A DNA stretch of 26,100 bases from an uncultured bacterium (GTDB lineage: Bacteria; Patescibacteriota; JACMRA01), in assembly GCA_963784355.1 (NCBI GenBank), contig CAWAQU010000013.1, positions 1 through 26,100 of the forward strand, read 5' to 3'. This document shows positions 4,999-22,945 of this stretch, in pieces. Under the pieces are notes generated by a model. It saw only the letters and a program-made list of their open reading frames with translations. It was not told where the DNA came from and made no database searches. Position 1 is the stretch's first letter, and each line of letters begins with the position of its first letter. The position numbers and the translations under genes are program-made.

Positions 4999-5390
4999 AT
5001 GCTCAGTGACAGCCCAGATCGCCTATTTCCTCCAGCAAATGCTGAATGCCGCGCCGCATCGCGGCACTCTATGCCATGCTGGCCTTCGGCTATTCGCTGA
5101 GCTTCGCGCTGACCAAGCGGGCGGATTTCACGCCCGGCGCGCTCTTCGCTTTTGCCGGCCAGGTCTTCGTCTATTTCACGTCCTTCGGCTATGACCGGCT
5201 GTGGTTGATCTATCCTGCGGCGCTCGCCGTCGGTGCGGCGGCATCCATCCTCTACACGCTGCTGACGGCCGCCATCGTCGGCGATAAGGTGATCCGGCCG
5301 CTGTCGCATATCTCGCCGAATTCGGTCATCACCGCCTCGCTCGCCATCATGATCGTGCTGATGGAACTGGTGCGCATTGCGGCAAGCGCC
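4999..5390 (+). CDS. Branched-chain amino acid ABC permease (LivH-like), 5' half only, cut at the junction
   Basis: YFLQQMLNA..IAALYAMLAFGYSLSFALTKRADFTPGALF resembles the LivH N-terminal motif; frameshifts near 5015-5060. Confidence 0.75.
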
Positions 5391-5400
5391 GAGGATAACT
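5380..5400. other. Junction between high-GC and low-GC sequence (probable chimera)
   Basis: Codon usage changes abruptly within one ORF (gcggcaagcgcc|gaggataactatacc); both flanking genes are truncated here. Confidence 0.9.
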
Positions 5401-5936
5401 ATACCTACGCACTACCTTTGCTCAAAAAGTATAATTTGGTAGGAGATTTTGCTATTGTTACAAGCACAGTGGGTAAACCGGAATATATGAATTGGCAACA
5501 ATTAAATGATTTAAAAAACATTGGAATGGGTATAAGCTCGCACACTTTTAATCACTGTTATTTAGCAGTAAATGTAGATCCAAAAACTGCAACAAAAGGT
5601 CCTTTTGCAAAATCTCCAGTTAACGATAGTCCAAATCAAATATGCCCAAACTTTACTTCAGGCAATCAATTAAATACAGGGCAGATTAGAGGTGAGTTAC
5701 TTAAAAGTAAGCAAGATTTAGAAAATAAATTGAGTATTAAAATCAAAAGTCTTGTGTATCCGTTTGGTAAATATAATGAGCAAGTAATCTCTATAGCCAA
5801 AGAATTAGGATACGAAATTGGGTTTACCGTAGAGCCCCAAGACAAAAAAATGTTAGATTTAAACAAATTATTTGAATTACCTAGAATTAGAATAAACGGC
5901 CAACAGACTGGCGAAATTGTAAAGTTTCTAGAATAA
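5391..5936 (+). CDS. Polysaccharide deacetylase (CE4/NodB), 3' part
   Basis: EDNYTYALPLLKKY (normally follows TFDDG), SHTFNH, YPFG and ELPRI motifs. Confidence 0.88.
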   Translation, partial: EDNYTYALPLLKKYNLVGDFAIVTSTVGKPEYMNWQQLNDLKNIGMGISSHTFNHCYLAVNVDPKTATKGPFAKSPVNDSPNQICPNFTSGNQLNTGQIRGELLKSKQDLENKLSIKIKSLVYPFGKYNEQVISIAKELGYEIGFTVEPQDKKMLDLNKLFELPRIRINGQQTGEIVKFLE

Positions 5937-18653: not shown

Positions 18654-19769
18654 GTGAAACAAATTTTAGCTAACGAAACAGAATTTCAACCAAACCAACT
18701 AATTATAAAATTGAAGCAAGTTTTGGGTAAAATAGCTCAAGAAAAAGCCGGCTTTGAAAATCCTGAATATTACCCTTTTCATATGGGTGAGAACCCATTT
18801 AGACATACAGAAGATGTAATGGCCAGAGCAGCAAAATCAGTTAAGGCTTTCGTATCGGTGGGAGTTTTAAGCCCTAAACAAGCAAATTCTATAATTTTGG
18901 CAGCTGCATTTCATGATGTTATTCAGAAACACAGTGAAAGAGGTTTAAATGAATTGCAAAGTAGTGACTTGGCAATAAAATTTATTAAGGATAACAAATT
19001 GGAGTCAAATTTAGATACAGATTTGGTGGAAGCATTTATTCTTTCAACTCTGCCAAGTTTTAAGTCAGCTGAAATTAAACCAGAAGCTAAAACTACTGAA
19101 GAAAAAACTAAAATTTACAATGGTTCTAAGATATATATTGAAGCAAAAGAAATAAAAAATCTTAGCTCAGAAAAATATTCTAAATTGCAAAAGTTAATTA
19201 TAGAACTAATTGTATTTTTGTCAGATTTAGGTGGAGCTTCCTTGGTAGGTAACAGAAGATTTAATGTTTTACGTTTAAACAGTCTCTCTGCAGCCAAAAT
19301 ACCGGAATACTCAAAAAATGTTGAGGTGTATCAAAAAATTATAAAAACAGATGCAATTTTATATAGTAACCAATTATTTTTAGAAATGCTAATCAAACAA
19401 GCAAATTTAGCTAATGAAAATGCTATAGCAAAACTCAATACTATTAAAGGTAGAGAAGTTAGTCAGCCTCAAGTGCAGGAACTTATTAACAGCTTCATAA
19501 AATATCGAGAAGGAGAGGTAGTATTTCAACATTATATTTTAGAAAAATTTAATAACAAAATCACCCAGATATTAGAATTTCTTGAAAATACAAATACTAC
19601 CACAGACATAGAAATTAGGGCCTTATTTGAAAAATTACAGTCACAAGTTTATAAAAATGGTGTTCAGGACGCAATTGAAGTTTATCATAATTTAGTCAAC
19701 GACGAGGCTAAAGTTTTGGAATTATTAAAGCAAGTATACGAAAAATCAATTCCTACCAAAACAATGTAA
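18654..19769 (+). CDS. HD-superfamily metal-dependent phosphohydrolase
   Basis: FH...RHTEDV, LAAAFHDV, NELQS and SDLG motifs; true start uncertain (see findings). Confidence 0.7.
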   Translation: MKQILANETEFQPNQLIIKLKQVLGKIAQEKAGFENPEYYPFHMGENPFRHTEDVMARAAKSVKAFVSVGVLSPKQANSIILAAAFHDVIQKHSERGLNELQSSDLAIKFIKDNKLESNLDTDLVEAFILSTLPSFKSAEIKPEAKTTEEKTKIYNGSKIYIEAKEIKNLSSEKYSKLQKLIIELIVFLSDLGGASLVGNRRFNVLRLNSLSAAKIPEYSKNVEVYQKIIKTDAILYSNQLFLEMLIKQANLANENAIAKLNTIKGREVSQPQVQELINSFIKYREGEVVFQHYILEKFNNKITQILEFLENTNTTTDIEIRALFEKLQSQVYKNGVQDAIEVYHNLVNDEAKVLELLKQVYEKSIPTKTM

Positions 19770-19844
19770 AATTATTAAGAAGGGATCGTTTTTTATCGCG
19801 TACATTTTATTGACATTTTTCTATATTCCAGTTTGAATTTCTCC

Positions 19845-20126
19845 ATGAGTTCTGGCCAATCAGATGATTTAAATCACCTTAGAAGTAGAATAGATCAAGT
19901 CGATGCAAAATTAATTCAGGTTTTAAAAGAAAGATTTGAGTTAGTGGAAAAAATAGGCCAGTACAAAAAACAACATAATCTACCTGCATTAAATCAAACT
20001 AGATGGCTAGAAGTGCTTGCCAAACTTGAAGAAAGAGCAAAAGAAGAAGGACTAGATTACCAAACACTTGAAGAAATCTGGAATATAATTCACAAATACT
20101 CTATTAAAATTGAAGAGAAAATCTAA
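19845..20126 (+). CDS. Chorismate mutase, AroQ/type II, standalone
   Basis: LNHLRSRIDQVDAKLIQVLKERFELVEKIGQYKKQHNLP...R. Confidence 0.88.
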   Translation: MSSGQSDDLNHLRSRIDQVDAKLIQVLKERFELVEKIGQYKKQHNLPALNQTRWLEVLAKLEERAKEEGLDYQTLEEIWNIIHKYSIKIEEKI

Positions 20127-20128
20127 AT

Positions 20129-20461
20129 ATGTATAACCCATCCTATATTATTGCCGACCATATTAGAGCTGCTTGTTTTATAATTGCTGAGGGTGTACAT
20201 CCAAGTGGTAAACAGCGTGGCTACATTTTAAGAAGATTAATTCGTAGAAGCCTAGCGGCCAGTCTTAAATTGAACATAGACATCAGTAGTAACAAATACT
20301 TTGAGGAATTGGTAGATGCTACAATTGCTATATATGACGGGGTATACGATGAGGTCAAAGAAAACCGAGATACAATCATCTCAACTTTGATTACCGAAGC
20401 TCAAAAATATCAAAAAGCTATCGTAGTAGGCCAAAAAGAATGGGCCAAAATCTTAAAATAA
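20129..20461 (+). CDS. alaS: Alanyl-tRNA synthetase fragment: helical tRNA-recognition domain
   Basis: IIADHIRAACFIIAEGVHPSGKQRGYILRRLIRR...EAQKYQKAI..GQKE. Confidence 0.88.
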   Translation: MYNPSYIIADHIRAACFIIAEGVHPSGKQRGYILRRLIRRSLAASLKLNIDISSNKYFEELVDATIAIYDGVYDEVKENRDTIISTLITEAQKYQKAIVVGQKEWAKILK

Positions 20462-20505
20462 TTATTTTGATTGTTTTTTATAAGACTTAATTTTAACAAA
20501 AATTT

Positions 20506-21168
20506 ATGACAACACAAGAATTAACACCTCAATTTTTAGCACAAAAGACCTGGGATTTATATCAAACCCATGGTGTCCCTATTGAAGTTTCCGAAACTAT
20601 ATTAGAAGAAAAAGGTTATAAACTAGATTTAGATGAATTAAACAAATTGATTGAAGCACATCAAAAACTATCTCAAACTACTTCAAGCGGACAGTTCAAA
20701 TCCGGCCTTGGGGAAAATACAGAGAAAACCACAAGACTACATACTACAACTCACATTTTACATAAGGTTTTGAAAGATACTTTTGGACCAGAAGTCAGGC
20801 AAATGGGGTCAGCAATTACTAGTGAAAAAGCCCGCTTTGATTTTGTTTTAGAAGAGAAAATGGATGAAGAAAAAATCCGGGAAATTGAAAAAAGGGTGCA
20901 AGAAATTATTGATATGCATTTAAAAATGGATAAAAAAGAGATGCCCGAAAAAGAGGCACGTGATCTTGGAGCTATTGGGCTTTTTGGTGAAAAATATGGA
21001 GAAAGAGTTACTGTTTATACACTAGAAGATGACAATCACATCGTTTATTCTAGAGAATTTTGTGGAGGACCACATGTTTCAACTACTGACGAGATAGGTA
21101 AATTCAAGATTTTGAAGCAAAAATCAATTGGGCAAGGACTAAAAAGGCTCGAATATAACGTAGAGTAG
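20506..21168 (+). CDS. alaS: Alanyl-tRNA synthetase fragment: end of recognition domain plus editing (AlaX-like) domain
   Basis: DLYQTHGVP, HTTTH, ARFDF, LFGEKYG, EFCGGPHV. Confidence 0.9.
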   Translation: MTTQELTPQFLAQKTWDLYQTHGVPIEVSETILEEKGYKLDLDELNKLIEAHQKLSQTTSSGQFKSGLGENTEKTTRLHTTTHILHKVLKDTFGPEVRQMGSAITSEKARFDFVLEEKMDEEKIREIEKRVQEIIDMHLKMDKKEMPEKEARDLGAIGLFGEKYGERVTVYTLEDDNHIVYSREFCGGPHVSTTDEIGKFKILKQKSIGQGLKRLEYNVE

Positions 21169-21210
21169 TTGGTTTGAAAGATTTATTAGCCAAACTAAGG
21201 CATTTATGTA

Positions 21211-21239
21211 TTGCCTATATTGACTTTTTAAGCTATACT
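21211..21239 (+). promoter_or_regulatory. Putative sigma70 promoter
   Basis: TTGCCT-17 nt-TATACT upstream of 21269. Confidence 0.5.
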
Positions 21240-21268
21240 TGATATGTAGAATAGATGAATAATCAAAC

Positions 21269-22945
21269 ATGGACAATAACCCTTTAGCCGATTTAGCTGT
21301 GGATTTGAAAACTAGTATATGTTATTTTGGGACTACCAATAATAAGGGGGTTAGTAAGACCTTCGGAGTTTTATCTGAAGATCGTAGAAAACACCTGTAT
21401 ATATTGGGTAAAACCGGCATGGGTAAAACTACCCTACTCCAAAATATGGTACTCCAAGATATTTATAACGGTTTTGGGGTATGTTTTGTAGATCCCCATG
21501 GCGACCCATCCGAGTATATTTTAGATAGAATTCCAACTCACAGACAAAATGATGTAGTGTATTTTAACCCTGCAGATACAGATTTTCCCATCGGTTTAAA
21601 CATGTTTGAGGCAACTCACGGAGAAGAAAGATTTTTAATTGCTTCCGGTCTAATCGCAGTTTTCCACAGATTGTGGCAAGGCATGTGGTCAGCTAGAATG
21701 GAATATATTTTAAATAATACACTATTAGCTTTACTGGAAAATCCTGATAGTACACTTCTCAGCATTATACAAATGTTGACTGATATAGATTTTAGAAAAA
21801 AAGTGGTAGAAAATATTACAGACCCGTTAATTAAAAACTTTTGGACCAAAGAATTTTCCAATTTCAACGATCGATACAGGCAAGAAGCTATTAGTCCGAT
21901 TCTAAATAAAATAGGTCAATTTTTAGCTAATGATCTTACTAGAAATATTGTGGGTCAAAAGAAAAGTACTATAAATTTTAGAGAAATAATTGATAACCAA
22001 AAAATTCTGGTAGTAAATCTATCTAAAGGTAAATTAGGTGAAGACAACTCTAACTTGCTGGGCTGCCTAATAGTTACCAAACTTCAACTTGCAGCTTTGA
22101 GTAGAGCAGATGTACCTGAGAAAGATCGTAAGGATTTTTATTTATATGTAGATGAGTTTCAGAATTTCACGACTGATAGTTTTACTACAATTTTGAGTGA
22201 GGCTAGAAAATACAAACTAAATTTAATTCTAGCGCATCAATATATTTCTCAACTGACCGAAAGCGGCAATGATAAGATTAAAAGTGCTATTTTTGGTAAC
22301 GTAGGGACTATTATCTCGTTTAGGCTGGGTTCAGAAGATGCTGATTTTATGGCAAAAGAATTTGCTCCGATTTTTGAACCAAAAGATTTTTTAAGTCTAG
22401 AAAAAACTCAAATTGCCCTATCCTTATCAATTAAAGACAACAAGAGTAAGCCATTTTTAGCCAATACTTTAGCTCCGATTTTTGACAAATTAGCTGGGAG
22501 ATTTATTGTAAATGCAGGTGTATCTAGACAAAAGTATGGTATCCCAAAAAATCAGGTAGTCGATGAAATCAACAAAGTGATGAAAAATAAGGTTGAGGTA
22601 AATTCAAACTTAAAATCACAAGCAAACCCCTCAAACATAAAAATTAATAGAAACTCAGGAGGTGGAACTGAGAAACTAAAAAATTTAAGAAATTCACGGC
22701 CTAGCATTCAACTTAATAATCAAACAAATCAAGTACAACCAAAGTTACCTTTAGTGCCAAACACAAATTTAAGTCTACCTCAAAATGGTCAATACAGTGA
22801 TGGTAATTTAGCTGCCCTTAAAAGAGCAAAAGCACAAGTAGCGGCAACAAATAGTGTGAAAGGACCTAAATTGATTTTAGGAAAAACTCCCCCACCCGAT
22901 TTAAACCCGGATGATAATTTTTTTCACGTACCCGGCTCAAAGTAA
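21269..22945 (+). CDS. VirD4/TraG/TrwB-like (HerA-FtsK superfamily) ATPase
   Basis: Walker A GKTGMGKT, DPHGD, Walker B LYVDEFQNF, SEARKY..AHQ, IFGNVGT; low-complexity C-terminal tail. Confidence 0.88.
   Translation: MDNNPLADLAVDLKTSICYFGTTNNKGVSKTFGVLSEDRRKHLYILGKTGMGKTTLLQNMVLQDIYNGFGVCFVDPHGDPSEYILDRIPTHRQNDVVYFNPADTDFPIGLNMFEATHGEERFLIASGLIAVFHRLWQGMWSARMEYILNNTLLALLENPDSTLLSIIQMLTDIDFRKKVVENITDPLIKNFWTKEFSNFNDRYRQEAISPILNKIGQFLANDLTRNIVGQKKSTINFREIIDNQKILVVNLSKGKLGEDNSNLLGCLIVTKLQLAALSRADVPEKDRKDFYLYVDEFQNFTTDSFTTILSEARKYKLNLILAHQYISQLTESGNDKIKSAIFGNVGTIISFRLGSEDADFMAKEFAPIFEPKDFLSLEKTQIALSLSIKDNKSKPFLANTLAPIFDKLAGRFIVNAGVSRQKYGIPKNQVVDEINKVMKNKVEVNSNLKSQANPSNIKINRNSGGGTEKLKNLRNSRPSIQLNNQTNQVQPKLPLVPNTNLSLPQNGQYSDGNLAALKRAKAQVAATNSVKGPKLILGKTPPPDLNPDDNFFHVPGSK

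Follow-up and report, generated by a model that had tools for sequence, protein, structure and literature searches.

Does a bacterium build its alanyl-tRNA synthetase (AlaRS) from three separately encoded chains? The question is raised by a 26,100-nucleotide stretch of DNA from an uncultured member of the Patescibacteriota (contig CAWAQU010000013.1 of assembly GCA_963784355.1, positions 1 to 26,100, forward strand), hereafter the window, in which two consecutive open reading frames (ORFs) at positions 20,129 to 21,168 each resemble one part of AlaRS. An earlier note, made from the sequence alone, proposed either a three-subunit AlaRS with its catalytic gene elsewhere or a repurposed pair of tRNA-binding and trans-editing proteins. 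The first proposal is supported by a catalytic gene on another contig of the same genome (G000; 1.14 Mb in 13 contigs, 81% complete; the window is its contig C13), and the second is less likely. We refer to the three genes as alpha (catalytic core), p2 (ORF1) and p3 (ORF2). No other AlaRS sequence was found, the breakpoints between the three are conserved, and all three evolve under purifying selection; with a probability of about 0.85, they together encode the AlaRS of this organism as a non-covalent assembly.

Three genes probably encoding one synthetase

The layout described in the earlier note (ORF1, the 2-nt gap before it, the 44-nt spacer, the frame of ORF2 and the stops) was borne out letter for letter (Table 1). 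The ATG of p2 (20129) comes 2 nt after the stop of an intact chorismate mutase gene, and with a CM_2 protein in that place the catalytic domain is indeed not upstream. p2 opens with MYNPSY, followed by IIADHIR, ends in KEWAKILK and matches positions 272-370 of the 552 positions of Pfam tRNA-synt_2c (E 4.7e-25). Its TAA (20459-20461) is followed by an in-frame TGA (20468-20470), and the ORF2 frame carries a TAA (20494-20496) three codons ahead of its ATG; since the stop-to-stop frames measure 115 codons (ORF1) and 223 codons (ORF2), neither ORF can be appreciably longer. p3 holds LYQTHGVP, HTTTH (residues 79-83) and CGGPH (residues 186-190), that is, the LYxTxGxP helix and the intact HxxxH/CxxxH editing site that had been read there, and matches both tRNA-synt_2c (positions 384-453, E 6.5e-8; p3 residues 12-83) and tRNA_SAD (E 1.4e-14; residues 168-216).

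Table 1 Features of the locus in the window and the third AlaRS gene of the same genome.
Feature	Position	Strand	Size	Remarks
alpha, catalytic core	G000:C9:41085-41969 (= L001:1486-2412)	-	308 aa	tRNA-synt_2c 2-259, E 8.7e-65
ORF1, AlaRS piece 2 (p2)	20129-20461	+	110 aa	first, helical half of tRNA-recognition domain
Spacer between p2 and p3	20462-20505		44 nt	AT-rich; stops in both gene frames
ORF2, AlaRS piece 3 (p3)	20506-21168	+	220 aa	frame differs from ORF1
Chorismate mutase, intact	19833-20126	+		Pfam CM_2, E 6.7e-24; ends in TAA

A catalytic gene standing alone and stopping soon after motif 3 was what the earlier note had called for, and alpha is such a gene. Class II motifs 1-3 are all present, a further Pfam comparison places the match of alpha at positions 2-257 (E 2.9e-65), and the protein terminates about 30 residues past DTGMGFER (motif 3). 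The AlaRS family search of G000 gave three matches above the cut-off and one sub-threshold match (E 0.014); as the note had anticipated, no full-length alaS was found in this 81% complete genome or in G018, a relative assembled as a single contig. The three pieces cover the AlaRS profile consecutively (2-259, 272-370 and 384-453, then the editing core), with neither overlap nor gap: the class II core stands on alpha, and the tRNA-recognition domain is divided between p2 and p3. In place of a single polypeptide with the C-Ala domain there are three genes, and C-Ala is absent. Elsewhere in G000, the sole DHHA1 (C-Ala-type) match above the cut-off lies inside a 644-codon frame, and the sole other tRNA_SAD match inside a 993-codon frame.

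Residues 6-99 of p2 align with residues 281-371 of the 441-residue AlaRS chain 3hxu/3hxz, and p2 ends at about residue 380 of a 3hxu-type chain; p3 starts 18 residues before LYQTHG. Residues 16-55 and 76-217 of p3 align with residues 446-487 and 597-734, respectively, of A. fulgidus AlaRS (2ztg/3wqy), and the intervening segment of about 110 residues (488-596), which we take to be the beta-barrel subdomain, is cut down to about 20 residues in p3. The piece is thus composed of three helices with LYQTHGVP, a short linker with a conserved FKSGLG and an editing core of AlaX-S size; it ends 4 residues past tRNA_SAD and therefore has no C-Ala. Its AlphaFold model (pLDDT 88.3, pTM 0.68) consists of three helices at the N-terminus and an alpha/beta core, joined by a weak linker (60-64). 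In Foldseek comparisons of this model the small AlaX proteins (1v7o, 1wnu) are almost fully covered (TMt 0.81-0.84), and AlaX-M (2e1b, 9iuw) only half (TMt 0.50-0.51).

Breakpoints and distribution

The class of G000, which is also its order, was compared in 27 species genomes. A stand-alone catalytic gene of about 300-330 codons occurs in 26 of them; p2 and p3 are separate in 10 of the 27 (G000, G002, G006, G008, G009, G011, G013, G018, G020 and G022) and fused, in a gene of about 330-366 codons, in 16 of the 26 genomes with a stand-alone alpha (the fused gene of G041 is cut by a contig end, yet continuous over the second break). The exception is G005, whose AlaRS is contiguous and which carries no split pieces. 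The 1.27-Mb genome of G018, assembled as one contig, gives exactly three AlaRS-family matches, even at E <= 10, so that a binning artefact is excluded and no hidden full-length gene is needed.

The conservation of the breakpoints, a check suggested in the earlier note, was confirmed: in a joint alignment both breaks fall in the same columns across the class, and both lie in linkers that vary in length in the single-chain AlaRS of other families of the candidate phyla radiation (CPR). alpha ends 2-8 residues past a conserved '...V..KW/Y' and the gene that follows in the alignment starts about 5 residues ahead of IIADHIR; p2 ends 0-5 residues from 'KEWxKIL', and p3 starts 2-6 residues ahead of '[LI]xPxFLAxKTWDLYQTHG'. 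The p2 end (KEWAKILK) and p3 start (..LTPQFLAQK) of G000 match those of the nine other three-piece genomes, and the Pro of the p3 N-terminal motif is present in 10/10 three-piece genomes and 0/15 complete fused forms. Because the same two breakpoints recur in relatives, the split between ORF1 and ORF2 is not due to chance. Protein trans-splicing was considered and rejected; the piece ends leave about 5-10 non-conserved residues and thus no room for split inteins.

Among the 10 three-piece genomes, p2 and p3 are adjacent in G000 only; they lie on different contigs in seven of the nine others, and in the remaining two (G018 and G022) are separated by two unrelated genes. These intervening genes (L054:2376-4282 in G018, L058:2385-4178 in G022) are co-oriented and encode proteins of about 256-284 and 337-346 aa; the two of G018 gave no Pfam match. 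The gene neighbourhood of the window was not seen in the 16 relatives compared (nine three-piece, seven two-piece), with no neighbour gene shared.

Outside the class, AlaRS is encoded by one ORF of 582-644 codons in all 15 genomes of a first comparison. In a 251-genome sample of the phylum (the genomes behind 115 match rows being judged from per-genome columns only) the stand-alone core was seen only in the 13 sampled split-gene members of the class, and the genomes from outside the class again had one ORF, with the following exceptions. All five sampled genomes of family f40 gave two matches within one open frame of 642-800 codons (that of 642 codons on a short contig), due to an insert; G183 carries a second, broken AlaRS copy; and partial matches were obtained in G058, G096, G107, G110 and G239, three of them beginning at most 8 bases from a contig end. 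In a collection of 5.8 billion proteins, 73 clusters of stand-alone p2 homologues were retrieved (E <= 1e-10; 77 candidates; the window's own included), 63 of them 110-123 aa long.

Other forms of AlaRS were observed in the same genomes. The f40 insert (G075, G099, G122, G143 and G162; L158-L167) measures about 170-185 residues and sits in the catalytic domain near Pfam position 214. The catalytic gene of G011 (L077:1080-4001, G011:C72) is a 974-aa open frame in which the core (Pfam 1-162 and 146-259) is interrupted in frame by an insert of about 650 residues that includes guanylate kinase, Ham1-like and serine hydrolase domains. G144, scored 100% complete, has a 447-codon AlaRS frame (G144:C2:17086-18363) with the aminoacylation domain only (Pfam 1-432); a query with p3 retrieved no editing part from this genome, and the frame may represent a bacterial mini-AlaRS. 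Most CPR AlaRS (genomes G026-G263) have about 580-650 codons and a Pfam match that extends to about 436-460 only, and therefore lack the beta-barrel part and C-Ala; longer ones, matching to 536-550, were found in four sampled genomes (G044, G095, G148 and G216).

Selection and conserved residues

The AlaRS pieces are under purifying selection. In the closest pair of three-piece genomes (G018/G022) the ratio of non-synonymous to synonymous substitution (dN/dS) takes the values 0.084 (alpha), 0.050 (p2) and 0.096 (p3); as dS is saturated (1.3-3.7) these ratios are rough, with dN far below dS. Relaxed selection on the pieces, the outcome that the earlier note had set against its own proposal, was not borne out.

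Across 24 class sequences, the Arg of motif 2 and DTGxGxER of alpha show no variation. ADH and the GYxLRRLxRR helix of p2, and YQ..GVP, FKSG, HxxTH and CGGPH of p3, are invariant or at least 90% conserved in the class; H79, T82, H83 and H86 of p3 are invariant, and C186-H190 at least 90% conserved. Both tRNA-Ala(TGC) and tRNA-Ala(GGC) of G000 carry G3:U70 and A73.

Evolutionary history of the breaks

In a tree of the concatenated pieces and single-chain CPR AlaRS, the 25 split sets cluster in a single clade (SH-aLRT 100). The contiguous AlaRS of G005 (L022, G005:C27:633-2075; L184; 647 codons) groups with other CPR classes, and G005 itself falls inside the class on the ribosomal-protein tree; a foreign AlaRS in a genome inside the class points to replacement by transfer or to a mis-binned contig. 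Given one clade of split sets and an alaS of G005 that was replaced or mis-binned, the first break arose, most simply, once, at the base of the class.

For the second break, a single clade of three-piece genomes is rejected on the S10+L3+L4+L23 tree (p-AU 2.6e-5; 25 of the 27 genomes, G009 and G023 being without a marker) and likewise with the alpha tree (p-AU 0.00018). With the p2+p3 tree, neither the three-piece clade (p 0.36) nor a grouping of G000 with G001 and G010 (p 0.149) is rejected. As the topology groups were defined by the trait itself, these tests are weakened. The results fit both lateral spread of the second break after common descent and repeated fission, after which the free N-terminus came under a new constraint.

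Model of the proposed assembly

For prediction of the complex, alpha, p2 and p3 were given as alignments, with p2 as the scored partner and three controls. p2 reached an ipSAE of 0.87 (runs 0.87, 0.87 and 0.88) versus 0.32 for the best of the three controls; among solved complexes 58 of 80, and among mismatched pairs 2 of 110, attained the calibration mark for this score. The three runs had at least 89% of contacts in common, with a partner pLDDT of at least 88. In the model the last helix of alpha (285-303) packs on residues 2-14 and 57-68 of p2, and residues 94-109 of p2 contact residues 6-38 of p3. The prediction of the trimer, suggested in the earlier note, docks p2 onto the other two pieces; because single-chain AlaRS structures have been solved, the score may merely reflect these.

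For the assembly, its stoichiometry and its aminoacylation and editing activities, we infer the following. alpha, the class II catalytic core, would make alanyl-adenylate. Its last helix (about 285-303) would insert into the helical bundle of p2, the first break being closed by helix packing in the predicted complex, and the last helix of p2 would pack on the N-terminal three-helix unit of p3. This unit would present LYQTHG, the motif that faces G3:U70 in solved AlaRS-tRNA complexes, and the C-terminal zinc-type editing core of p3 would clear mischarged tRNA-Ala. Without beta-barrel and C-Ala, the enzyme is expected to be a 1:1:1 assembly confined to reading the acceptor stem.

A fuller statement, to which we incline with clearly less assurance, is that an obligate heterotrimer is the sole AlaRS of the organism and would be the first natural three-gene aminoacyl-tRNA synthetase and the first split AlaRS in Bacteria; that the break between catalysis and recognition arose once at the base of the class; that the second break switched state several times, or else was spread by lateral transfer, at a linker cut independently by Nanoarchaeota; and that G3:U70 is read without the canonical Asn, Asp or C-Ala.

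Points against the assembly and alternative explanations

Several observations weigh against a three-gene AlaRS. The complex model suggests that the pieces can rebuild the known fold, which is likeness and not binding. G000 is only 81% complete, and in the species nearest to it (G001 and G010; support 99/97 on S10+L3+L4+L23) p2 and p3 are fused. Among public runs, no RNA run carrying the window sequence is listed, and no Shine-Dalgarno-like purine run was seen when the spacer 5' of ORF2 was read directly. Over 19800-21300, one public DNA run (12% of sampled words) yielded one identical contig of 203 nt (20262-20464, depth 2.8), which covers the ORF1 stop, does not bridge the spacer and may be from the source sample; two other public runs yielded no contig. 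The genes encode no C-Ala, the module on which E. coli AlaRS mainly relies to bind tRNA, and the N461 fragment of the E. coli enzyme is described in the text of PMC10036535 as binding tRNA poorly. The conserved Asn and Asp that read G3:U70 are missing as well: Asn359 and Asp450 of A. fulgidus (E. coli Asn303 and Asp400), given as contacts of G3:U70 in the relevant passages of PMC11392972 and PMC10036535, correspond to the Gly of PSGKQ (aligned by way of the fused G001 protein; the class has G, P or A at this site) and to Gln20 of p3 (invariant in 25 sequences). These replacements count against the textbook mode of recognition; the working enzymes of Nanoarchaeum equitans, with the Asp replaced, and of Tupanvirus, without either residue, are precedents (see below).

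The alternative that survives best, though we consider it unlikely, is a division of labour: p3, with or without p2, would serve as a free factor that binds tRNA-Ala or edits in trans like AlaX, and alpha would charge with transient or no contact, or with p2 only. The editing core of p3 does have the size and fold of small free-standing AlaX (see the TMt values above), and no other AlaX-type gene was found in G000, where the only other tRNA_SAD match is that in the 993-codon frame; moreover, Nanoarchaeum equitans alpha alone charges weakly and without G3:U70 specificity, according to the account of this enzyme in PMC11392972. The alpha of G000, however, stops before the whole tRNA-recognition domain and is far shorter than N. 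equitans alpha (comparable to E. coli 368N), and even 368N is given in the same account as unable to charge tRNA (PMC11392972). Further, p3 retains the N-terminal recognition half (Pfam 384-453), which plain AlaX lacks; p2 and p3 have as orthologues the fused second subunit found in 16 relatives and, in single-chain CPR AlaRS, the C-terminal two thirds; and the complex model sets p2 against both alpha and p3.

It is very improbable that the p2 and p3 of G000 are truly fused and that stops and spacer are assembly or sequencing errors. The earlier note had allowed for relatives with a contiguous alaS at this locus, and this was found in part: ORF1 and ORF2 are fused in the sister species G001, as in G010, but a whole alaS was never seen there. 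The 203-nt contig, the only public one found, ends short of crossing the spacer, and the compositionally foreign first 5.4 kb of the window's contig indicate an assembly that is not flawless. A fusion would nevertheless require two in-frame stops to be read through, a change of frame and a 44-nt AT-rich insert to be accounted for. The public contig repeats the end of ORF1 and its TAA letter for letter, even if it may derive from the source sample, and the p2 end and p3 start agree with the nine other three-piece genomes, including a Pro that the 15 complete fused forms do not have.

Decay of a dying alaS, with alanylation supplied by an unassembled full-length gene or by a host, is equally improbable: the incompleteness of G000 and the contiguous, foreign-looking alaS of G005, by which replacement does occur, would allow it, but 10 genomes retain all three pieces undamaged and 16 the two-piece form, at a divergence where synonymous sites are saturated (dN/dS about 0.05-0.1), the single contig of G018 holds no other AlaRS, and G005, with its contiguous gene, holds no split pieces.

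Genomic context

p2 and p3 are probably co-transcribed with the chorismate mutase gene. A promoter and terminator scan of 19600-21400 found no terminator-like site between ORF1 and ORF2, and 4 promoter-like sites versus 7.8 expected from shuffles; the scan is uninformative. The window's neighbouring genes are ordinary chromosomal ones (ribosomal proteins, GreA, 6-phosphogluconate dehydrogenase), and a mobile cassette finds no support in this neighbourhood. A TrwB/TraG-type coupling-protein-like ATPase of 558 aa is encoded directly downstream of p3 (21269-22945); no other conjugation genes were seen within the window. An NDK gene lies at 169-870.

On contig C9, alpha is flanked by a membrane protein gene on one side and by S10/L3/L4 ribosomal genes on the other. 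In this S10 operon (L168:2798-3408, G000:C9) an L23-like ORF is directly followed by an S19-like ORF, without L2 between them; both ORFs were named by position and first residues only.

The first 5400 nt of the window have a GC content of 56-65% (61% overall), versus about 32% for the remainder; the other contigs and the rest range around 29-36%. The switch occurs within 200 nt near 5400, inside an ORF (5046-5936) whose N-terminal part matches a permease family and whose C-terminal part matches polysaccharide deacetylase. This segment is probably either the end of a chimeric contig or foreign DNA acquired very recently. Contig C4 likewise exceeds 50% GC over its first kb.

Comparison with known systems

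Aminoacyl-tRNA synthetases made of separately encoded chains include the heterodimeric LeuRS of Aquifex aeolicus and the bacterial alpha/beta GlyRS and PheRS, each with two kinds of chain; we know of no three-gene aminoacyl-tRNA synthetase. In CC-licensed PMC papers and bioRxiv preprints on split AlaRS and CPR synthetases, neither a three-gene synthetase nor a bacterial or three-piece AlaRS, nor a split between alpha and p2, nor the loss of beta-barrel and C-Ala in a split bacterial AlaRS was found. The break between alpha and p2, the bacterial setting and the three-gene form appear undescribed.

AlaRS is presented in the text of PMC10036535 as the only synthetase that keeps its prototype structure throughout biology, the split enzyme of N. 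equitans excepted; a class-wide two-gene AlaRS with ten three-gene genomes breaks this picture further. The natural cut sites define three self-folding modules (catalytic core, helical adaptor, and recognition end with editing core), and if the three-gene AlaRS is real, the seams between these autonomously folding modules are two natural ones. Natural proteins could then be used to ask what part of AlaRS suffices for reading G3:U70, whether a catalytic core by itself behaves as a relic-like minimal enzyme, and by what means an editing domain on its own chain stays coupled to charging. Software for annotating genomes or scoring their completeness that looks for a single alaS will miscall such genomes; the 110-aa pieces are labelled 'alanyl-tRNA synthetase' by JGI.

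The direct homologue is the single-chain CPR AlaRS (about 580-650 aa), which has the domain content of alpha, p2 and p3 together (a Pfam match ending at about 436-459 of 552, a short editing core, no C-Ala); it differs in being one polypeptide, and most such enzymes retain the PSN asparagine that is lost in the class of G000. AlaX-S (PDB 1v7o, 1wnu) resembles the C-terminal 150 residues of p3 in fold, size and the HxxxH and CxxxH motifs. Unlike AlaX-S, p3 carries an N-terminal 60-residue piece of the aminoacylation domain and is co-linear with the C-terminal part of the single-chain and fused forms, and it descends from the cis-editing domain of AlaRS and not from an AlaX lineage.

The split AlaRS of Nanoarchaeota, the only group from which a two-piece AlaRS is known, is described in the text of PMC11392972 as two unlinked genes, an alpha comparable to E. 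coli 368N and a beta that starts before LYISKG, with both halves of the N. equitans enzyme needed for strong, G3:U70-specific charging. The genes of the G000 class are likewise unlinked, and the p2/p3 break lies in approximately the same linker, before LYxxxG, as far as the N. equitans protein can be placed from the text of PMC11392972; this argues for a convergent or at least parallel cut. The G3-reading Asp is replaced in both (Ile in N. equitans, from the same text, and Gln here). The nanoarchaeotal enzyme, as portrayed there, is archaeal and in two pieces, its alpha keeping the first recognition half and its beta keeping C-Ala. In contrast, the present class is bacterial, has an additional class-wide break between core and recognition domain (alpha ends before IIADHIR, at about Pfam position 259), lacks beta-barrel and C-Ala, and carries three genes in 10 of 27 genomes. 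The mini-AlaRS of Tupanvirus, in the account of PMC10036535, is likewise natural, devoid of C-Ala and of the canonical Asn and Asp, and G3:U70-specific through the acceptor stem only; it differs in being a single chain, derived from eukaryotes, with no editing domain.

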